A DNA stretch of 64,000 nt from an uncultured Clostridia bacterium (lineage in GTDB: Bacteria > Bacillota > Clostridia > Christensenellales > CAG-314). Both the position numbers and the translations under genes were made by a program. Every line of letters starts with the position of its first letter. The stretch's first letter is position 1. Of the stretch, positions 542 to 8,546 are shown one piece after another. The DNA lies in the NCBI GenBank assembly GCA_947586855.1, contig CANPXV010000001.1, positions 81,350 to 145,349 on the forward strand. The letters run 5' to 3'. The notes beneath the pieces were generated by a model that did no database searches, was not told the DNA's origin, and saw nothing but the letters and a program-made list of their open reading frames with translations.

Positions 542-1456
542 ATGTTGTATAAGGAATGGCTGAACGAGTGGTTGGAGGTGTACGTGAGGGCCTCCGCCAA
601 GGAAAGGACTTACAAAAAGTACCGTCAGCAGGTGCGCAAATACATTGTGCCGTCGCTGGGAGAATACGACACGGACGGTTTGTCGGCAGGGGTGCTGCAA
701 CGATTTTCGCTGTCGCTTGCGGGGTTGGGGCTATCCGCCAACACGGCAAACGGCATTTTGACGCTGCTGAAATCGTCCCTGACCAAGGCGGTGGCGTTGG
801 GTCTGGCGCAAGGCCACTTTTGCGAGGCCATCGTGCGCCCAAAAACACGGGCGGGCAAGGTGGGGTGTTTTAGCAAGGCAGAGCAGCTGCTCATAGAAAA
901 ATACGTTTTTGAGCACAACACGCCCTATCTGTTTGGAATTTTGCTTGGCCTGTACTGCGGATTGCGCATAGGCGAGCTGCTGGCGCTGACTTGGGAGGAT
1001 GTGGACTTTGAACGGGGCACGCTGAACATCACCAAAACTTGCAGAGACAGTTGGCAGGGTGGAAGTTACGTCAAGCTGCTGGATACCACCAAAACGCCCA
1101 GCTCGGAGCGATTGGTGCCGCTGCCAAGCGGGATAATGGCCCATCTGCGCACACTGAAACAGGCCGCCAAGTGCCCTTTTGTGGTGACGGGGCGCACGCC
1201 CTACGGCGCCGAGGTGAGATCCTACCAACGCACTTTTGCCGCCGTGCTGAAAAATCTCGGTCTGCCGCACAGAGGGTTTCACTCGCTGCGTCACACCTTT
1301 GCCACCCGTGCCTTGGAGGTGGGCATGGACATCAAAACGCTGGCGGAAATATTGGGGCACAAAAACGCCACCGTCACGCTGCAACGGTACGCCCACTCCC
1401 TGCTGGAACACAAGCAGGAAATGATGAACCGAGTGGGACAACTGCTGCAATATTAG
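542..1456 (+). CDS. tyrosine-type site-specific recombinase / phage-type integrase (304 aa)
   Basis: GGAGG at 531-535, 6 nt before the ATG. The C-terminal catalytic region reads HSLRHTFATRALEVG...LGHKNATVTLQRYAH (R..HxxR..Y pattern). The N-terminus is SAM-like (EWLNEWLEVY..). Confidence 0.85.
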   Translation: MLYKEWLNEWLEVYVRASAKERTYKKYRQQVRKYIVPSLGEYDTDGLSAGVLQRFSLSLAGLGLSANTANGILTLLKSSLTKAVALGLAQGHFCEAIVRPKTRAGKVGCFSKAEQLLIEKYVFEHNTPYLFGILLGLYCGLRIGELLALTWEDVDFERGTLNITKTCRDSWQGGSYVKLLDTTKTPSSERLVPLPSGIMAHLRTLKQAAKCPFVVTGRTPYGAEVRSYQRTFAAVLKNLGLPHRGFHSLRHTFATRALEVGMDIKTLAEILGHKNATVTLQRYAHSLLEHKQEMMNRVGQLLQY

Positions 1457-1555: not shown

Positions 1556-1801
1556 TCAGTCCGCTACGTACGGAATCAAAGCCATCTGACGTGCACGCTT
1601 GATTGCCACTGCAAGCTCTCTTTGGTGATGAGCGCAGACGCCGGTCATACGGCGGGGCAAGATCTTGCCGCTTTCGGCCATGTATTTGCGCAGTTTGGCA
1701 ACGTCCTTGTAGTCGATGTGATCCAACTTTTCTACGCAAAAATTGCAAACCTTGCGGCGAGCGGGACTTCTCATAGGTCTTTTTACTTCTTTGTTTTCCA
1801 T
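1556..1801 (-). CDS. rpsR: 30S ribosomal protein S18
   Basis: 81 aa reading KVCNFC...[56 protein letters not shown] lies upstream. Confidence 0.95.
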
Positions 1802-1815
1802 TTTCTATTCTCCTT

Positions 1816-2223
1816 TCAGAAAGGCATATCGTCGTCATCAACAACTTTGAGGCTGTCGATGCTGGAATCCTTTGCGGCGGGGGCGCTTTGGCCCTGTTGC
1901 GGGGCGCTGCCTGCACGGGACAGGAACTCTACCTGCTCGGCACGGATATCAAACGTCTGACGACGCACGCCGTCACGCTCGTAGCTGCCCGTTTGGATGC
2001 TGCCTGTTACCGCTACCTGGCTGCCCTTTACAAGATACTTGACGCAGTTGGTGGCCAATGCGTCCCAAGTGATGATGTTGATGAAATCGGCACGGTTGTC
2101 CGCATCGCGCGAATAGCTGCGATTGACGGCAATGCTGAAACGGCAGTAGGTGTGGCCGCCCTCGGTGGGTGTGGATGCCTGTGGGTCTTGTGTTAGTCTA
2201 CCAATCAAAAATACTTTGTTCAT
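1816..2223 (-). CDS. ssb: single-stranded DNA-binding protein
   Basis: Start chosen at MNKVFLIGRLTQDP, with GGGGAG 6 nt upstream. OB-fold-like core, Gly/Gln/Ala-rich linker and acidic tail DDDDMPF. Confidence 0.93.
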   Translation of the reverse strand: MNKVFLIGRLTQDPQASTPTEGGHTYCRFSIAVNRSYSRDADNRADFINIITWDALATNCVKYLVKGSQVAVTGSIQTGSYERDGVRRQTFDIRAEQVEFLSRAGSAPQQGQSAPAAKDSSIDSLKVVDDDDMPF

Positions 2224-2242
2224 CTGTGTCTCCCCAATTGTT

Positions 2243-2527
2243 TTACTTTCTGACAATCAGAAAACGAATGACGGAATCTTGATTGATGCGCATCACACGT
2301 TCCAATTCCAGCGGCAGGCTTGCGGGCGCGGTAAAGTTGACAAGCACATAGTAACCTTCGGTTTTGTAGTTGATGGGATAGGCCAAACGCCTTGTGCCCC
2401 ATTTGTCTACGCTGTCAACAGTGCCGCCGTTGCCCGTGACAACTGCATTGAGCTTTTCCACAACGGCGTCCTTGGCCTCATCGGCAAGTTCGTTGTTGAG
2501 GATGTACAACAACTCGTAACTGTTCAT
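2243..2527 (-). CDS. rpsF: 30S ribosomal protein S6
   Basis: Start at MNSYELLYIL, with AAGGAGG upstream. Canonical rpsF-ssb-rpsR gene order. Confidence 0.93.
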   Translation of the reverse strand: MNSYELLYILNNELADEAKDAVVEKLNAVVTGNGGTVDSVDKWGTRRLAYPINYKTEGYYVLVNFTAPASLPLELERVMRINQDSVIRFLIVRK

Positions 2528-2607
2528 GCTGAAAAATACCTCCTTGTGGTCTGTTTGGCTGCGGTTCCTCCCCGCAGCAAGGGTTGCTCCATATTTGGGC
2601 AAAATAC

Positions 2608-2636
2608 ATTATATACGAATTATCCCGAAATTGCAA
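2608..2636 (-). promoter_or_regulatory. candidate promoter of the rpsF-ssb-rpsR operon
   Basis: Minus strand reads TTGCAA, a 17-nt spacer, then TATAAT. Confidence 0.5.
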
Positions 2637-2750
2637 GCGATTTTGAGACAAAAACGGTTTGGCAGCAAATGTTGGGATGTGACAGCGAAAATTGTGACGA
2701 AGCTCGACCCAAGCAGTACAATATATCAAATAAAAATCTTCCCAACCCGC

Positions 2751-2776
2751 CCCACCGGCGAGGTGCGGCGAGGTGC
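2751..2776. repeat. short hairpin-repeat motif CACCGGCGAGGTG plus a half copy
   Basis: Reads ccccaccggcgaggtgcggcgaggtgc. It belongs to the same family as the three tandem copies at 12071-12131, in the opposite orientation. Confidence 0.7.
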
Positions 2777-2782
2777 AAGGCG

Positions 2783-3442
2783 CTACCAAATTATCCGGCG
2801 ACCCTGCTGCTGCAAAAAGGCGTTGGCCTTCGTGAAATGTCTGCACCCGAAAAACCCATTGTAGGCGGACAGCGGACTTGGGTGCGCCGCCGTCAGCACC
2901 AGATGCTGCGGTGCGGTGACAAGCGCCTTTTTTGCATAGGCGTTGCGCCCCCACAGCAAAAATACCATGCCTCGGCTGCGGTTGTTGAGGTGCGCTATCA
3001 CGGCGTCGGTAAATATCTCCCAGCCCTTGTCCTTGTGAGAGTTGGGCTTGCCCTGCTCCACCGTCAGCACGGTGTTCATCAGCAGCACGCCCTGCTTGGC
3101 CCACGGGGTGAGGTCGCCGCCTGCGATTTGCGAGGGACGGCCCGTATCGGACTGTATCTCCGCAAAGATGTTGACCAGACTTTTGGGCACCTGTACCCCC
3201 TGCGGTACGGAAAAACACATGCCCATGGCCTGCCCAGGATTGTAGTAGGGGTCCTGCCCCAGAATGACCACGTTGACGTCGTCATAGGCGGTGTTGTCGA
3301 ATGCATTGAGTATCAGAGGTTTGGGCGGGTAGATACGCTTGGCGGCATATTCATGCACCAAAAAGCTCTTCAACTGTACAAAATAGGGCTTTGAAAACTC
3401 TTTCTTGAACATTTCGTCCCAACCGTTGTAGGAGCGTGTCAT
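2783..3442 (-). CDS. ung: uracil-DNA glycosylase (family 1)
   Basis: Start at MTRSYNGW (position 3442). Motifs GQDPYYNPGQAMG and HPSPLSAYNGFFG. The longer 343-aa ORF is treated as a spurious 5' extension. Confidence 0.93.
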   Translation of the reverse strand: MTRSYNGWDEMFKKEFSKPYFVQLKSFLVHEYAAKRIYPPKPLILNAFDNTAYDDVNVVILGQDPYYNPGQAMGMCFSVPQGVQVPKSLVNIFAEIQSDTGRPSQIAGGDLTPWAKQGVLLMNTVLTVEQGKPNSHKDKGWEIFTDAVIAHLNNRSRGMVFLLWGRNAYAKKALVTAPQHLVLTAAHPSPLSAYNGFFGCRHFTKANAFLQQQGRRIIW

Positions 3443-3840
3443 TGGTTTGCCTCCTTTGCGACGGGTTTTATGTGCAGGTCCCTTTCCGCACGGATCACGT
3501 CGCCATCGTGCAATGTGAGCACTTCGTTGTCGTTGTAATCTGCCACCACACCATTGTATTGCAGTGCAATTGCGCCCTCGGCCGAATGTATGACGTAGCT
3601 GCCTGCAGCAAGCGGTTTGCCCTCGCCCACGGCATAGGGGTGCAGCGCTGTCAACACAAAAAACTCGCCGTCGATGGCAATGGGCGCCGGTTGAGACGAG
3701 GCCTGCAAGCGCACAAATTTCTCCCGCTTCATATCCCTGTACATAACGACAAAGCGCACCGCCAGCCCGATTGTGGCCGCAGCGGCAATGGCCACTATCA
3801 CCCAGGGAAACCAATCCGAAAAACTTGTTGCAAACAGCAT
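3439..3840 (-). CDS. hypothetical single-pass membrane protein
   Basis: Start at MLFATSF, with GAGGTGG 5 nt upstream. N-terminal hydrophobic helix WFPWVIVAIAAAATIGLAV. Its stop overlaps the ung start (ATGA). Confidence 0.55.
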   Translation of the reverse strand: MLFATSFSDWFPWVIVAIAAAATIGLAVRFVVMYRDMKREKFVRLQASSQPAPIAIDGEFFVLTALHPYAVGEGKPLAAGSYVIHSAEGAIALQYNGVVADYNDNEVLTLHDGDVIRAERDLHIKPVAKEANQ

Positions 3841-3995
3841 GTGTGCCACCTCACCAAGATTTATCGACAAAATTATACACCACTTTGCTACCGTTGTCTA
3901 TCCCCCGACGGCACACCAAAGAGGCAAAACTTCGTTCTATCCGTTTGGCGCAGGCGCATTTGCCATTTTGATGGCATTGTTTTGCAAAATGCGTA

Positions 3996-4024
3996 TTGAC
4001 TTTGCCTGCGGCGTTTGCTAAAAT
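3996..4024 (+). promoter_or_regulatory. candidate promoter
   Basis: TTGACT, a 17-nt spacer, then TAAAAT, 36 nt before the ATG at 4060. Confidence 0.45.
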
Positions 4025-4059
4025 ATATACAGATAAATTTGTCTACACGGGAGGTTGTT

Positions 4060-4536
4060 ATGGATAGCCAACAGATCTACAAGAGAGCCCTTGCTGTGAT
4101 GGAGGAAAACTTTGGCCACGTGGTGGAAATGAGCGTCGGCTCGTCCGCAAACGGCACCGTGAGCGTGCGGGACGTAAACGCCGTCTATCGGGAGGGCAAA
4201 TTTTATGTGCTGAGCAGGCTGGGCAACTCGCTGATGAACCACATCGCCGTAAGCCCCGCCGTTGGGCTTTGCCACGGCTCTCACAATATGCACGGCAATG
4301 CACGCTCGCTGGGACATCCGCTGGACCCGCAAAATGCCGAGCTGCGCAAGATGCTGAAAAGGGAGTTTTCGCTCAACTACGACGAGTACGTGACCGAGCG
4401 CAACCCCGAAATGCGCATCGTGGAAATAACGCTGACCTCGGCCGAAACTTACACACGCTACCACCGCTACAAAATCGACTATGTGGCGCAAACGGCCGTG
4501 CGAGACCACACCGAGCCGCTGTTCCTCTATCGCTGA
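4060..4536 (+). CDS. small cytoplasmic protein, possibly of the pyridoxamine-5'-phosphate-oxidase-like FMN-binding split-barrel family
   Basis: GGGAGG 6 nt upstream of the ATG. 158 aa. The family call rests only on overall resemblance judged by eye. Confidence 0.5.
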   Translation: MDSQQIYKRALAVMEENFGHVVEMSVGSSANGTVSVRDVNAVYREGKFYVLSRLGNSLMNHIAVSPAVGLCHGSHNMHGNARSLGHPLDPQNAELRKMLKREFSLNYDEYVTERNPEMRIVEITLTSAETYTRYHRYKIDYVAQTAVRDHTEPLFLYR

Positions 4537-4566
4537 CCCCGACCCGACCATTGACCAACATCGAAT

Positions 4567-4599
4567 AAAAAACGGATTGAGCACTCAATCCGTTTTTTT
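4567..4599. terminator. bidirectional rho-independent terminator
   Basis: aaaaaACGGATTGAGcaCTCAATCCGTttttttt. Confidence 0.8.
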
Positions 4600-4715
4600 G
4601 GTGCACCATAAGGAGCTCGCAGTGGCTCTGCCACCAATGGAAGCGTAAGCGACCGCCATATCTAACCTTTGGATACAATTGTAAACGGGACTGAATTTTC
4701 TTCAGTCCCGCTGTT
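4599..4715 (-). other. tRNA-Arg-derived fragment block (copy A2): hairpin plus partial variable-loop/T-arm/acceptor look-alike ending TGGTGCACCA
   Basis: Minus strand reads AACAGC-GGGACTGAAgaaaaTTCAGTCCC-..CCAAAGGTTAG..GAGCTCCTTATGGTGCACCA. It shares CCAAAGGTTAG and GAGCTCCTTATGG with the tRNA-Arg genes but lacks a D arm and an anticodon arm. Confidence 0.5.
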
Positions 4716-4863
4716 TGGCGCGCCTTAAGGAGCTCGTGGACGGAGCGTAGCGCAGTCCCCAGGGATTGCTACGCACAGCGTCAATCCCGTCATATATTTC
4801 AGTCCCTCCTTGGGGTGCGCTTTTGCGAAAAGGCGACTTGGAATTTATCCAAGTCGCCTTCGC
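4716..4863 (-). other. 148-nt segment lying between the current 3' end of tRNA-Arg-1 and a displaced alternative 3' end (20-nt direct repeats at 4716-4735 and 4864-4883)
   Basis: GAGCTCCTTAAGGCGCGCCA (4716-4735) versus GAGCTCCTTATGGCGCGCCA (4864-4883). The displaced copy pairs 7/7 with the tRNA 5' acceptor GCGCCTT. The segment also contains a hairpin/T-run and structured helices. Confidence 0.45.
4830..4860 (-). terminator. terminator-like hairpin immediately 3' of tRNA-Arg-1
   Basis: Minus strand reads AAGGCGACTTGGA-taaat-TCCAAGTCGCCTT followed by TTCGC. Confidence 0.5.
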
Positions 4864-4940
4864 TGGCGCGCCATAAGGAGCTCGAATCCCTAACCTTTGG
4901 TTCCGTAGACCAACGCTCTATCCAATTGAGCTAAAGGCGC
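4864..4940 (-). tRNA. tRNA-Arg (anticodon ACG), copy 1, with one acceptor-stem mismatch
   Basis: Hand-folded cloverleaf: GCGCCTT-TA-GCTC-AATTGGATA-GAGC-G-TTGGT-CTACGGA-ACCAA-AGGTT-AGGGA-TTCGAGC-TCCTT-ATGGCGC-G-CCA. Acceptor position 6 is a T:T mismatch. Confidence 0.85.
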
Positions 4941-4976
4941 ATATATTAAGTTGTTTTTGCAAAGGTTGCTGCCTAT

Positions 4977-5090
4977 TGCACCCACAAGGAGCTCGCAGTG
5001 GCTCTGCCACCAAGGGAAGCGAAGCGACCGCCATATCTAACCTTTGGATACAATTGTAAACGGGACTGAATTTTCTTCAGTCCCGCTGTT
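4977..5090 (-). other. tRNA-Arg-derived fragment block (copy A1), paralogue of 4599-4715
   Basis: Same hairpin and same internal sequence as 4599-4715, apart from a 1-nt indel and a few substitutions. It ends in a degenerate GAGCTCCTTGTGGGTGCA. Confidence 0.5.
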
Positions 5091-5167
5091 TGGCGCGCCA
5101 TAAGGAGCTCGAATCCCTAACCTTTGGTTCCGTAGACCAACGCTCTATCCAATTGAGCTAATGGCGC
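5091..5167 (-). tRNA. tRNA-Arg (anticodon ACG), copy 2, with a perfect acceptor stem and encoded CCA
   Basis: Identical to copy 1 except for the 5' acceptor GCGCCAT, which pairs 7/7 with ATGGCGC. 77 nt. Confidence 0.92.
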
Positions 5168-5186
5168 AAAATCAATTTGCTAACAT

Positions 5187-5215
5187 ATTATACAGCTCGG
5201 CGGCAAAAATGTCAA
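5187..5215 (-). promoter_or_regulatory. consensus sigma70-type promoter for the tRNA-Arg cluster
   Basis: Minus strand reads TTGACA, a 17-nt spacer, then TATAAT, about 20 nt upstream of the tRNA 5' end. Confidence 0.6.
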
Positions 5216-5270
5216 CGATTTTGGGGCGGTTTGTAAAATGTCGGGCGAGGCCCCGTGCCAAACGTCTGTG

Positions 5271-6173
5271 CTATGCCCTATCCACAAACTGCGCCGCCAA
5301 AAAGCCCGCCACGGCACCGTCCCCCACGGCGGTGGCACACTGACGCACACTTTTGGTGCGGCAATCGCCTGCGGCAAAAATACCCTTGCGGCCGGTGAGG
5401 CAGTTTTCGCCCGCCACGATGTAGCCCTGCTCGTCCAATTCCACCAGGCTTGCAAAGGCCTCGTTGTGGGGTTGCTGCCCAATCGCCACAAACACGGCGT
5501 CGCAATCGATGTAGGTTATGGCGCCGTCGTCAGACTTGCAAACCACGCCCTTGACGCACTCGTCGCCCACAATCTCCGTGACGGCCACGCCCTGCGTCCA
5601 GACAACGCCCTGCGTCGCAAGCAGCCGCTGTTGCAGCTCCATATCGCAAAACAACCTGTCAAACAGGGTGACGAGGGTCACTTGCGAGCAAATTTCCGCC
5701 AGATACAGCGCATATTGCACGGCACTGTTGCCGTCGCCCACCACGCAGACGTGCTTGTCCTTGTAGAACGCACCGTCGCACACGGCGCAATAGCACACAC
5801 CCTTGCCCAAAAGGCGCTGCTCGCCCTCCACGCCCAGCTGTTTGTGCGTGACGCCCGTGGCCAGCACCACCGCACGGCACGGATAGGAGGCGTACTCCGT
5901 TGTGACCACAAAGCCGTTTTCGGCAGGCGCAACCGTGGCTGTGCCCATGTCAAAATCCACCCCGTGAGAGGTGGCCTGCTCAAACATTTTGTCGGCCAGC
6001 TGTGCGCCGCTCGTCTCCATGACGGAGGGGAAATTTTCCACCCTGGGGGCGATGGCTATCTGTCCGCCGAAAGCGTTGCTTTCCAGCAGCATAACCTTTT
6101 TGCCGGCACGGGCCGCATATAGCGAGGCGGTCAAACCCGCAGGTCCGCCGCCGATAACCACAATATCGTACAT
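5271..6173 (-). CDS. trxB: thioredoxin-disulfide reductase-like flavoprotein
   Basis: 300 aa with GGGPAG (FAD), a redox-active CAVC, and GDGNSAVQ (NADPH). It starts 9 nt after the nrdD stop. Confidence 0.88.
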   Translation of the reverse strand: MYDIVVIGGGPAGLTASLYAARAGKKVMLLESNAFGGQIAIAPRVENFPSVMETSGAQLADKMFEQATSHGVDFDMGTATVAPAENGFVVTTEYASYPCRAVVLATGVTHKQLGVEGEQRLLGKGVCYCAVCDGAFYKDKHVCVVGDGNSAVQYALYLAEICSQVTLVTLFDRLFCDMELQQRLLATQGVVWTQGVAVTEIVGDECVKGVVCKSDDGAITYIDCDAVFVAIGQQPHNEAFASLVELDEQGYIVAGENCLTGRKGIFAAGDCRTKSVRQCATAVGDGAVAGFLAAQFVDRA

Positions 6174-6182
6174 TTTTTGCCG

Positions 6183-8546
6183 TTATTTTGCGCTTTCGAT
6201 ATACTTGCGCACGTTGGACGCATTTTCGTATATCTTGTAGCTGTCGCCGTCGGCAACAACCAATGTGGGGGTAAGTTTGATCCGGAATTTTTGGGAAAGG
6301 TCGGCGTGCTGCATGGCGTTGATTTCCTCCACGTCCATGTTGGCCTTGTGCAGCATAAGCTCGGCCATCTTGCAGTTGGGGCAGTTGTCCTGCACAAACA
6401 GCAGCGGACGCAACAAGCAGGTCTGCGCCTTGGCTTCTTCCTTTTCGTGGGAGACAAGGCACTTCTTTTGCACGCTGTGCTCGGGCTGATAGGTCTTGCG
6501 ATCCTTCCACTCCTGCTGCTTGCCGTCGTTCCAATTTTGCACGGGGCGATAGTAGCCCGTTATGCGGCTGTACACCTCTGTCTTGGCGTGGCACTGAGGG
6601 CACTCGTACTGCTCGCCCGCAATGTAGCCGTGCTCGGGGCAGACAGAGTAGGTGGGGGACAGCGTGTAGTAGGGCAGACGATAGTTTTCGGCTATCGTGC
6701 GCACCAACTTCATTGCCGAACGCCAATCGGGCAGGCGCTCTCCCAAAAATCCGTGGAACACGGTGCCCGACGTATACAGCGTTTGCAGCTCATCCTGTAT
6801 ATCCAATGCATCAAAGATGTCGTAGGTGTAGCTGACAGGCAGGTGCGAGCTGTTGGTGTAGTAGGGGGTGCCGCCCTTTTTGCCGGCAAAGATCATGTCG
6901 GGATACAGCTTGGCGTCGTGTTTGGCCAAGCGATAAGCGGTCGACTCGGCCGGGGTGGCCTCCAAGTTGTACAGATCGCCGTATTTTTCCTGATAGTCGC
7001 TGAGTCGCTCTCTCATGTGGTTGAGCACCTTTTTGGTAAAGGCTTGCGCACGTGCGTCCGTCATGTCGCAGGCCAACCAGGCGGCATTGAGGCAGGCCTC
7101 GTTCATGCCCACAAGCCCGATGGTGGAAAAGTGGTTGTTGAATGTGCCCAGATAGCGCTTGGTGTAGGGATACAGCCCCGCCTCCATAAGCTGCGTGACG
7201 GTGGTACGCTTTATTTTGAGGGAGCGTGCGGCAATATCCATCATTTTGTCCAGCCGCTCAAAAAACTCCTTTTCGTCCTTGCTGAGGTAGGCGATACGGG
7301 GCATGTTGATCGTGACGACGCCGATACTGCCGGTGGACTCTCCGCTTCCGAAGAAGCCGCCGCTCTTTTTGCGAAGCTCTCTCAGATCCAGACGCAGACG
7401 GCAGCACATGCTGCGCACGTCGCTCGGCTCCATATCGCTGTTGATGTAGTTGCTGAAATAGGGCGTGCCGTACTTGGCTGTCATCTCAAACAGCAGCTTG
7501 TTGTTTTCTGTCTCGCTCCAATCGAAGTCCTTGGTGATGGAGTAGGTGGGGATGGGATATTGGAAGCCCCTGCCGTTGTAGTCGCCCTCTATCATGGTCT
7601 CGATGAAGGCCTTGTTCACCATGTCCATTTCCTTTTTGCAGTCCTTGTAGCGGAAGGGCATTTCCTTGCCGCCCACAATGCAGTGCAGCTCGGCCAGGTC
7701 GTTGGGCACAGTCCAATCCAGCGTGATGTTGCTGAATGGCGCCTGCGTGCCCCAACGGCTGGGGATATTGACGCCGTAGATGAAGGACTCGATACACTTT
7801 TTGGTCTCCTCGTAGGAGAGGTTGTCCGCCTTGACAAAGGGTGCAAGATAGGTATCGAAGGAGCTGAACGCCTGTGCGCCCGCCCACTCGTTGGCCATGA
7901 TACCGATAAAGTTGACCATCTGGTTGCACAGCGTGGCAAGGTGCTTGGCCGGTGCGGAGGTGATTTTGCTCGTCACGCCGCCAAGGCCCTCCTGAATGAG
8001 CTGTTTGAGGCTCCAACCGGCGCAGTAGCCGCTAAGCATGCCCAAGTCGTGCAGGTGGAGCGCACCGCTGCGATGCGCCTCGCCGATCTCCTCGTCGTAC
8101 ACCTCGCTGAGCCAATAGTTGGCCGTGATGGCGCCGCTGTTGGACAAAATGAGGCCGCCTACCGAATAGGTGACTGTGCTGTTCTCCTTGACGCGCCAAT
8201 CGGCAATTTTGAGGTAGTTGTCCACCACCGATTTGTAGTCCAAAAAGGTCTCGCCCGCACGACGAGCGTTCTCGTGCGATTTGCGGTACAAAATGTATGC
8301 CTTGGCAACGTCGGCATAGCCGGCCTGTATCAACACCGTCTCGGCGCTGTCCTGGATGTCCTCTACCGACACGATGCCGTCGGTAACTTTGTCCAGAAAG
8401 TCCGCAGTCACCTTCAACGCCAACATGTCGATGACGTCCTGCGTGTAGGGCTTGCCCGTGCCGTCGAAGGCCGCCTTGATAGCGTCGCTTATCTTGGAAA
8501 GTTTGAAGTCGATAACTTGTCCATTTCTCTTTTTTACACGATACAT
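6183..8546 (-). CDS. nrdD: anaerobic (class III) ribonucleoside-triphosphate reductase with a C-terminal thioredoxin/glutaredoxin-like extension
   Basis: ATP-cone-like N-terminus (RNGQVIDFKLSKISDAI). Zn ribbon CPEHG..CPQC. Glycyl-radical motif SRITGYYRPV. About 100 extra residues follow, carrying CPNC and LTPTLVV. Confidence 0.93.
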   Translation of the reverse strand: MYRVKKRNGQVIDFKLSKISDAIKAAFDGTGKPYTQDVIDMLALKVTADFLDKVTDGIVSVEDIQDSAETVLIQAGYADVAKAYILYRKSHENARRAGETFLDYKSVVDNYLKIADWRVKENSTVTYSVGGLILSNSGAITANYWLSEVYDEEIGEAHRSGALHLHDLGMLSGYCAGWSLKQLIQEGLGGVTSKITSAPAKHLATLCNQMVNFIGIMANEWAGAQAFSSFDTYLAPFVKADNLSYEETKKCIESFIYGVNIPSRWGTQAPFSNITLDWTVPNDLAELHCIVGGKEMPFRYKDCKKEMDMVNKAFIETMIEGDYNGRGFQYPIPTYSITKDFDWSETENNKLLFEMTAKYGTPYFSNYINSDMEPSDVRSMCCRLRLDLRELRKKSGGFFGSGESTGSIGVVTINMPRIAYLSKDEKEFFERLDKMMDIAARSLKIKRTTVTQLMEAGLYPYTKRYLGTFNNHFSTIGLVGMNEACLNAAWLACDMTDARAQAFTKKVLNHMRERLSDYQEKYGDLYNLEATPAESTAYRLAKHDAKLYPDMIFAGKKGGTPYYTNSSHLPVSYTYDIFDALDIQDELQTLYTSGTVFHGFLGERLPDWRSAMKLVRTIAENYRLPYYTLSPTYSVCPEHGYIAGEQYECPQCHAKTEVYSRITGYYRPVQNWNDGKQQEWKDRKTYQPEHSVQKKCLVSHEKEEAKAQTCLLRPLLFVQDNCPNCKMAELMLHKANMDVEEINAMQHADLSQKFRIKLTPTLVVADGDSYKIYENASNVRKYIESAK

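Follow-up and report, generated by a model that had tools for sequence, protein, structure and literature searches.

The question raised by this locus is why copies of the 3' end of a tRNA stand outside the tRNA genes to which that end belongs. In a 64,000-nucleotide (nt) stretch of DNA from an uncultured Clostridia bacterium (contig CANPXV010000001.1; this whole stretch is called the window below), two tRNA-Arg(ACG) genes are accompanied by repeats of the tRNA tail, and a first-pass annotation had read the repeats as scars of integrated elements or, as a second option, as tRNA-derived RNAs. The tRNA-Arg(ACG) locus with its tail repeats is confirmed as real. We lean towards the view that it is an array of tRNA-linked repeats of the kind seen at E. 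coli tyrT/rtT, in which recombination between the tail copies has changed the arrangement. The best explanation is a single tRNA-Arg(ACG) operon in which the spacer and the trailer come from tRNA-derived modules, namely one unit that we call X and two truncated copies of L, a long gene resembling a tRNA (the truncated copies form the blocks B1 and B2). The tails of these modules are the last 17-20 nt of the tRNA, made up of the 3' strands of the T-stem and the acceptor stem plus G73 and CCA. Other loci and contigs are cited by their numbers, from L001 onwards.

All features of the array are on the minus strand. In the order of transcription they are the promoter, tRNA A, hairpin hp1, B1, a spacer, tRNA B, hairpin hpX, X, a second hp1, B2 and the terminator (Table 1), with one promoter and one strong terminator for the array. 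B1 lies between the two tRNAs, and X and B2 lie between tRNA B and the terminator, all on the tRNA strand. The promoter is the sole promoter-like site within positions 4300-5500, and its block is kept in the syntenic locus L049 and also in L031, L074 and L090; the terminator is present in all conspecific contigs. ARAGORN, Rfam and the promoter match bear out the earlier description of two tRNA-Arg(ACG) genes of 77 nt with a consensus promoter. The two genes are 227 nt apart and agree at 76 of their 77 positions, and the Rfam threshold for the tRNA family RF00005 is 29 bits. Neither ARAGORN nor Rfam called X or the B blocks as tRNA, and an Rfam scan of positions 4500-5300, at the gathering score and at E<=10, returned the two tRNAs and chance matches (RefA5, mir-988) only.

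The copies of the tRNA tail are concentrated in this array. The sequence GAGCTCCTTAAGGCGCGCCA at positions 4716-4735 is 19/20 identical to positions 4864-4883, 148 nt away, and our repeat search agrees on this direct repeat of the tRNA 3' end with the first-pass annotation. When the 17-nt tail CTCCTTATGGCGCGCCA was searched with up to 3 mismatches, 4 copies were found in the 64 kb, all inside the locus, against 0.10 expected. They are exact in both tRNAs and have 1 mismatch in X and 2 in B2, and the tail at the end of B1 is more degenerate than these. The block said to be duplicated after each tRNA-like 3' end was found as well: positions 4647-4736 and 5022-5111 are 99% identical over 90 nt, and positions 4606-4645 and 4982-5021 are 95% identical over 40 nt, with a spacing of 375/376 nt, as a dispersed duplication. 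Two identical copies of the hairpin GGGACTGAA...TTCAGTCCC were verified. The position of hp1 is where relatives have a terminator-like hairpin after every module, and the junction of spacer and tRNA B (..AATAT/GCGCC) is common to relatives. The hairpin hpX, orthologous to the post-tRNA hairpins of L017, L031 and L090, has a short U-run and therefore makes only a weak terminator. As to the hairpins and helices listed at first, those at 4830-4860 and 4567-4598 and the helix GGGATTG/CAATCCC (invariant in 9/9 homologues) hold, and the competing helix GCGTAGC/GCTACGC does not: it is not conserved, and relatives have GCTATGC, GCTTCGC or GCCACGC instead.

Table 1. Features of the tRNA-Arg(ACG) array, the related units in other loci, and an integrase gene (positions are those of the window unless a locus is named)
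Feature	Position	Strand	Remark
Sigma-70-type promoter TTGACA-17-TATAAT, for the whole array	5187..5215	-	12/12 consensus match
tRNA-Arg(ACG) A, 77 nt, perfect stem GCGCCAT/ATGGCGC, encoded CCA	5091..5167	-	ARAGORN; Rfam RF00005, 61.4 bits
hp1 copy 1, hairpin CGGGACTGAAG-AAAAT-TCAGTCCCG, directly 3' of tRNA-type end	5061..5085	-	
B1 core: CCAAAGGTTAG (tRNA positions ~39-50), 42-nt T-loop replacement, GAGCTCCTTGTGGGTGCA; no CCA	4977..5047	-	
Spacer (36 nt) ending in TTAATATAT, upstream of tRNA B	4941..4976	-	
tRNA-Arg(ACG) B, 77 nt, GCGCCTT (T6)/ATGGCGC (T67)	4864..4940	-	ARAGORN; Rfam RF00005, 58.4 bits
hpX, 13-bp hairpin AAGGCGACTTGGA/TCCAAGTCGCCTT after tRNA B	4830..4860	-	
X module, 105 nt	4716..4820	-	ends in copy of the tRNA's last 20 nt, GAGCTCCTTAAGGCGCGCCA (4716-4735)
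hp1 copy 2	4686..4710	-	identical to hp1 copy 1
B2 core, second 3'-half remnant of L, ending in GAGCTCCTTATGGTGCACCA	4599..4672	-	
Bidirectional intrinsic terminator AAAAAACGGATTGAG-CA-CTCAATCCGTTTTTT	4567..4598	both	shared with convergent 158-amino-acid (aa) open reading frame
Alpha-type units	L029, L043, L075, L086, L097, L102		within ~600 nt downstream of tRNA
Full-length L genes	L111:150-307; L034:2076-2232; L090:5848-6006	+; +; -	
Tyrosine integrase, phage-type (phrog_1, PF00589)	542-1456	+	adjoins rpsF-ssb-rpsR operon (1550-2600)

The same architecture is a lineage-wide trait of gut Christensenellales-like Clostridia. A scan of the GTDB genomes with the tRNA core gave 105 loci, all from uncultured gut Clostridia around Christensenellales (e.g. 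Borkfalkia, Stercoripulliclostridium and Limihabitans), and in about 25 related species, where a tRNA with a hairpin, a body and its own tail copy behind it is the rule, 1-4 downstream units end in a copy of the 3' strand of their own tRNA. A search with each tRNA's own tail found 1-4 downstream copies at 105-200-nt spacing in 19 loci, beyond the rabbit-gut clade, whose tail copies are more degenerate than those of the 19 loci. An allele-agnostic search found 32 tail copies in 17 loci, and the first copy was the cognate acceptor 3' strand in 14 of the 17, against a permutation mean of 3.9 (p<=1e-4). The tail copies track the allele that the adjacent tRNA has in its acceptor stem. Among the three exceptions is the window, with an X copy that matches the 5' strand and not the 3' strand of tRNA B. 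Near-identical tandem units occur in L022 (a 172-nt unit, 2.4 copies, 97% identity) and also in L029, L075 and L086, and the unit bodies differ between clades, being mosaic with rapid turnover. Units that we call alpha-type (~100 nt) start like a tRNA acceptor and D arm and end in a tRNA tail. They fold into a closing stem and three hairpins in which 8/30 pairs are compensatory, and they have no Rfam match. An Rfam scan of 18 related loci returned tRNA only. In L094, a change of GCGC to GTAC is found both in the segment behind the first hairpin and in the 3' copy of the same unit, with pairing kept. The relatives with TrxB at 79% identity (L004-L009) keep nrdD-trxB and have no tRNA-Arg downstream, and for that reason are uninformative on the array.

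Judged by sequence comparison, X is a conserved module and not a recent insert. Its homologues, scored at 103-117 bits by a covariance model built from these homologues themselves, are found in L017 (2 copies), L031, L046, L049, L090 (2 copies) and L111, all of them rabbit-gut metagenome-assembled genomes (MAGs). Together with its hairpin, X makes up the 128 nt between the repeats, and this segment lies at the same place downstream of the same tRNA in at least 7 sister species; L049 is fully syntenic, with nrdD-trxB and the same promoter, tRNA, hairpin and X. The central hairpin GGGATTG..CAATCCC of X (4762-4788) is invariant across the homologues save for one covarying pair, and a second hairpin, GGAC..GTCC, shows a switch from G-C to U-A. 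In the X fold 93.4% of the cells are paired and 2 pairs have compensatory changes, and the covariation score is 0.092, compared with 0.055 in shuffles (reached by 2/500). The model reaches distant units weakly (15-27 bits), which makes a broad X alignment for covariation impossible. The first 15 nt of X, GCGCACCCCAAGGAG (4806-4820), are a near reverse complement of the tRNA-type tail, and the duplex between this segment and the 3' copy has -19.2 kcal/mol versus -13.4 for controls; the closing helix has three mismatches in the window.

An open reading frame (ORF) also lies inside X. At positions 4736-4803 on the minus strand, a Shine-Dalgarno motif AAGGAGG is followed after 11 nt by the ATG of a 22-codon ORF, and the TAA stop of this ORF is created by the same A (the A67 variant) that sets this tail copy apart. 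We rejected X as a small protein gene: the ATG is ATT, ATA or ATC in L017, L046 and L031, and L049, L090 and L111 are out of frame because of a 2-nt indel.

The B blocks are related to the long gene L. L is a tRNA-Arg-like gene of ~158 nt that is intact in L034, L090 and L111. It has an insert of ~45 nt after position 7 and ~43 nt in place of the T-loop, and its D arm (including the D-loop) and ACG anticodon arm are identical to those of the real tRNA. ARAGORN called none of the L genes. The L gene of L111 scores 29.5 bits as an Rfam tRNA via an alternative acceptor stem built by the two inserts, and complementarity between the inserts is present in L034 and L111 and not clearly so in L090. 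We know of no bacterial mechanism by which L could be a tRNA with introns. The 42 nt of the B blocks that had been described as an unrelated insert are homologous to the sequence that replaces the T-loop in L. With the L 3' halves of L034/L090/L111, the B2 core shares 84-88% identity and the B1 core 75-76%; the B1 core is 86% identical to B2. Between strains (L120, L122 and L124) the flanks of B are ~98% identical and the core is hypervariable, with many substitutions; the core of L122 is closer to the L genes of sister species (GGTTAGGGAGAGCAGTCGC), and B ends lose CCA among strains. Because the cores vary strongly between 98%-identical strains and lose CCA, we regard B as a hairpin plus what appears to be a decaying 3' half of L, despite folding z-scores of -4.5 to -5.1, which are dominated by hp1. 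Of the first-pass annotation's second option, tRNA-derived RNAs, the part that concerns X is closer to the evidence, and the B blocks look like decaying 3' halves.

The two tRNA genes differ in the acceptor stem. As had been described, one copy has a perfect stem and the other a T:T mismatch: in tRNA B one non-standard pair, 6:67 (U6:U67), was flagged, and the acceptor stem is not fully paired. We compared 103 tRNA-Arg(ACG) genes with the same 42-nt core, from 102 species representatives and the window. The 6:67 pair is C:G in 43, A:T in 25, T:A in 20 and G:C in 14 of these genes, and T:T in tRNA B only. The claim that AAGGCGC is the natural partner of GCGCCTT is borne out by 12 related species, in which GCGCCTT/AAGGCGC is a natural tRNA-Arg(ACG) allele, and both parental alleles (A6:T67 and T6:A67) occur in the clade. 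A sequencing error, which had been named as a possible source of the mismatch, is excluded by contigs from other samples: L001, L010 (ERZ27249236) and L121 are identical to the window over both acceptor strands of tRNA B and match it over tRNA A, B1, tRNA B, X and B2, apparently as one and the same strain. Probably, tRNA B is a chimera of two alleles.

The array differs between conspecific strains exactly at the repeats. We collected contigs that encode the identical downstream 158-aa ORF, from six further assemblies. L121 is the window strain and is identical; identity to the window is 98.2% over 3.7 kb for L120 and 98.0% over 2.0 kb for L122. The latter two read terminator, B, hp1, GGCGCGCCTTAAGGAGCTCG, then AATCCCTAACCTTTGG..., which is an intact tRNA body with AAGGCGC exactly where the window enters the X body, and the breakpoint is the 20-nt repeat. 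Therefore, a 148-nt presence/absence difference bounded by a 20-nt repeat exists within the species, and the repeat-bounded polymorphism that the first-pass annotation envisaged is real. It also follows that the AAGGCGC copy of the window is collinear with a real tRNA 3' end in this species. Since X is at the same site in sister species, while L120 and L122 have the tRNA body with AAGGCGC instead, a deletion between the repeats explains the 148-nt polymorphism equally well; and since X is syntenic there, we favour loss or reshuffling over a fresh insertion. In two contigs that are 99.95% identical (L123 and L125), B2-hp1 is joined to a tRNA body via a T67 tail and not to X (4599-4736), either because the population has a true deletion between the 138-nt repeats or because short reads were wrongly joined across the 90-nt repeat. 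In L011, the first tRNA gene has A6 too.

These observations suggest how the array may have been formed. The tail copies and the identical tRNA cores would serve as homology tracts for unequal crossing-over, deletion and gene conversion, and such recombination would have produced the 138-nt B duplication and the 148-nt presence/absence polymorphism of X. Because the tRNA cores are identical and every module carries a tail, the observed arrangements would be interconvertible. The species would have had two tandem alleles, A6:T67 in the first gene and T6:A67 of the L120/L122 type. A crossover between the alleles inside the tRNA core would then have given a T6/T67 chimera followed by hpX-X, so that tRNA B would have its 5' part from the T6:A67 allele and its 3' end from the A6:T67 allele. 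Loss of the DNA between the X tail copy and the tail of a T6:A67 tRNA would have placed X, ending in AAGGCGC, before hp1-B, and the AAGGCGC after X would be the leftover T6:A67 tail. Had point mutation produced the two complementary differences independently, a coincidence of ~1 in 60 would be required (a rough estimate from 1/20 for the position and 1/3 for the base). It is less well supported that the whole array is transcribed from the single promoter, that its tRNA-type ends and the complementary 5' segment of X might let tRNA-maturation enzymes free an X RNA of ~105 nt, like rtT, and that the B blocks may be decaying remnants.

Several points weigh against this reading. TRF found no head-to-tail tandem array in the window. 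The 148-nt indel can be read in either direction, and several histories, of which ours is one, are possible for tRNA B. L120 and L122 are short Logan contigs that prove only the junction of tRNA body, AAGGCGC and hp1 start, and their link to the terminal B crosses sequence that is repeated in the window strain. The covariation support for X is modest, with 9 closely related sequences and 2 compensatory pairs, and the closing helix is missing from many later units in the relatives. Co-transcription of the array and the processing and stability of X are presumed, and tail copies that track the allele could be explained by gene conversion alone, without an RNA function.

Some of the loci have further features that we record here. 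In L042 (1-760 on the plus strand and 1317-1961 on the minus strand) tRNA-Arg is present in three tandem copies with a 172-nt spacing, and GCGCCCT with an insert of ~45 nt stands before each of them in place of a normal 5' acceptor strand; ARAGORN called none of them. An X copy after these tandem tRNAs is interrupted by ~160 nt, and the downstream ORF, with the N-terminus MTKTYAYARVSSRDQ..., is serine-recombinase-like by appearance only. In L075 (oriented, 1604-8000), there is a 45-nt 3' fragment of tRNA-Arg, reaching from the anticodon loop to CCA, at a distance of 6.2 kb downstream from the tRNA, with a second alpha-type array behind it. The DNA between the tRNA and this fragment codes for a repeat-rich protein of 1380 aa, which has a membrane-anchor-like segment at its C-terminus, and holds an ORF of 189 aa; by appearance, neither is integrase-like. 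L034, L046 and L111 have a common module of ~1.1 kb, located directly behind their arrays (~200-1600 nt downstream) between two ins1/F5-type fragments. It contains TTGACAAATATATTT repeats and two ORFs, one for a small membrane protein and one of 153 aa (with an N-terminus that is helix-turn-helix-like by appearance). This module may be a small mobile or accessory cassette bounded by tRNA-like fragments. In the window itself (5271-8546, minus strand), the anaerobic ribonucleotide reductase NrdD weakly matches a glutaredoxin-like family at its C-terminus (PF00462, 21.0 bits against a cut-off of 22.9) and is followed by a thioredoxin-reductase-like flavoprotein, and this pair is kept in all relatives examined.

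The recombination reading has to be weighed against others. One of them takes the modules as functional tRNA mimics: X, the alpha-type units and L would show an acceptor/T-stem-like helix with NCCA, L would show the D-loop and anticodon arm in addition, and they would bind or titrate factors specific to tRNA-Arg, such as ArgRS, the CCA-adding enzyme, 3'-processing enzymes or a toxin that cleaves tRNA-Arg. Conservation confined to the 3' strand of the acceptor/T minihelix and NCCA is consistent with this, as are the complementary 5' segment in many first units with the double compensatory change in L094, the compensatory pairs of the alpha-type fold, the nearly invariant central hairpin of X with its one covarying pair, the D-loop and ACG anticodon arm that L shares with the real tRNA, and the persistence of modules across many species. 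On the other hand, the module bodies are mosaic with fast turnover, the B cores are strongly divergent even among strains of 98% identity and lose CCA, many units are without a closing helix, and the closing helix of X in the window has its three mismatches. Even in E. coli the mode of action of rtT is unknown (10.1101/2024.07.17.603846). We consider the mimics a doubtful reading. Tentatively, and without expecting it to hold, one may imagine X, the cloverleaf-like alpha-type units and L with its replaced T-loop as a superfamily of tRNA-Arg(ACG)-derived structured RNAs in gut Christensenellales-like Clostridia that would be co-transcribed with the tRNA, end in the strand of its acceptor/T minihelix and CCA, co-evolve with its allele, be matured by the tRNA machinery and act as mimics or regulators of tRNA-Arg. 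If this were true, a superfamily so far undescribed would give the Firmicutes an equivalent of rtT that does have a function.

The reading proposed at first was that a T-loop-targeting tyrosine integrase inserted an element with its own tRNA 3' end. The element would have shrunk to 128 nt, the AAGGCGC end would be the displaced one, and the B blocks would be older att remnants. The att identity blocks of tRNA-targeting integrases begin in the T-loop and run to the CCA, and the repeat in the window likewise spans T-loop to CCA. Fragments of tRNA genes are usually explained by the integration of mobile elements (10.1101/2022.07.05.498093), and this standard explanation in the literature favours the reading. 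It is further favoured by the 148-nt repeat-bounded polymorphism, in which the distal copy keeps the allele that matches the tRNA 5' strand, by the distant tRNA fragment of L075, by the accessory module beside the arrays of L034, L046 and L111, and by the phage-type integrase gene 3.1 kb away. However, rpsF-ssb-rpsR, a uracil-DNA glycosylase gene and two hypothetical genes lie between this integrase gene and the array, in agreement with the annotation's remark on housekeeping genes in between. No att repeat for the integrase was identified in the window, and there is no clear GC anomaly that would mark a compositional island around it. The 64 kb hold no further att copy and no distant att partner, and among the 105 loci only L075 has such a partner, with no integrase between. 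The supposed insert is orthologous and syntenic in the sister species, where the 128 nt are conserved at the same place, and this speaks against a recent T-loop insertion of a foreign element. There is no gene in the 128 nt between the repeats, and the ATG is lost in 3/7 species. Most relatives have their arrays between housekeeping genes without an integrase, their near-identical tandem units fit amplification and not serial integration, and E. coli tyrT has the same pattern with no integrase between the copies.

The viral and phage collections were without the patterns tested. An attP expected from integration would be identical to GAGCTCCTTATGGCGCGCCA and lie beside the hairpin and X. The X pattern had 0 viral matches in IMG/VR and 2 chance matches in the JGI metagenomes; the B pattern had 2 chance matches inside coding sequence in IMG/VR, and 0 matches in the GTDB genomes and the JGI metagenomes. 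A blastn search of the phages in INPHARED returned tRNA genes only. The search for an element carrying attP thus gave no true match in IMG/VR, the JGI metagenomes or INPHARED, where the IMG/VR and JGI searches used exact patterns only and have limited sensitivity. Taken together, of the first interpretation the AAGGCGC partner and the repeat-bounded polymorphism stand and the recent foreign integration does not; integration as a whole appears improbable to us, and a recent phage insertion is probably not the source of the array. It is conceivable that an integrase brought about the first duplication in the distant past. Finally, it is hardly credible that collapsed or mis-joined MAG repeats made the mismatch and the block order as an assembly artefact: repeats of 90 to 138 nt do break short-read assemblies (L001, L011 and L120-L125 end inside them), and L123 and L125 have the alternative join, but two window-identical contigs from other samples span tRNA A, B1, tRNA B, X and the start of B2 (L010) and the terminator, B2, X and tRNA B (L121).

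In practice this matters for annotation, since small tRNA-tail fragments beside a tRNA gene are by themselves not evidence of phage or integrative and conjugative element (ICE) integration. By comparing the array with its relatives, one can ask whether selection maintains such modules as RNAs or recombination leaves them as by-products, and also how sequence passes between tandem tRNA alleles; tRNA B looks like a chimera caught before its repair or loss. To our knowledge, the function of tRNA-linked repeats such as rtT has been unclear since their first description, and they are known essentially from enterobacteria.

Three known systems can be compared with this array. Like phage and ICE att scars and gene-free att-flanked elements, it has direct repeats of a tRNA 3' end from the T-loop and a presence/absence polymorphism bounded by the repeats. 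It differs from them in having only 128 nt between the repeats with no integrase or cargo, in the synteny of this segment in sisters, in the lack of a matching attP in the viral collections (searched with exact patterns), and in the near-identical tandem units of its relatives. Tandem tRNA duplicates under concerted evolution or unequal crossing-over resemble it in that tRNA B joins the strands of two natural alleles, and differ in that, here, modules that are not tRNAs and have the tail alone are also among the substrates of recombination.

The third system is the tyrT operon of E. coli, in which rttR is one of the repeated units (PMC3318445). We read tyrT-tyrV-rttR of E. coli K-12 directly and found the 19-nt tRNA-Tyr tail AATCCTTCCCCCACCACCA 6 times, all exact: in both tRNAs, once in the tyrT-tyrV spacer, and three times in the 178-bp repeats (3.1 copies, 95%). 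The rttR unit ends exactly on a tail copy, and the unit contains GGGGAAGGAT, which is complementary to the tail. The rtT unit also overlaps a tiny ORF, tpr; the ORF in X of the window is not conserved. The window differs from the E. coli operon in its tRNA (Arg-ACG versus Tyr) and its phylum, in having no sequence similarity (with no match to RF00391, the Rfam family of rtT, at the gathering score or at E<=10), in its heterogeneous modules (X and two truncated L halves versus 3 near-identical tandem units), in being without a conserved small ORF like tpr, and in the acceptor mismatch of one tRNA. The two share two tandem copies of one tRNA behind one promoter, the repetition of the last 19-20 nt (T-loop to CCA) in the spacer between the tRNAs and in the trailer units, and a segment within the unit that is complementary to the tail. 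In these Clostridia the same architecture appears independently, for a different tRNA and in a phylum far from that of E. coli; about 25 species have it, with several types of module.

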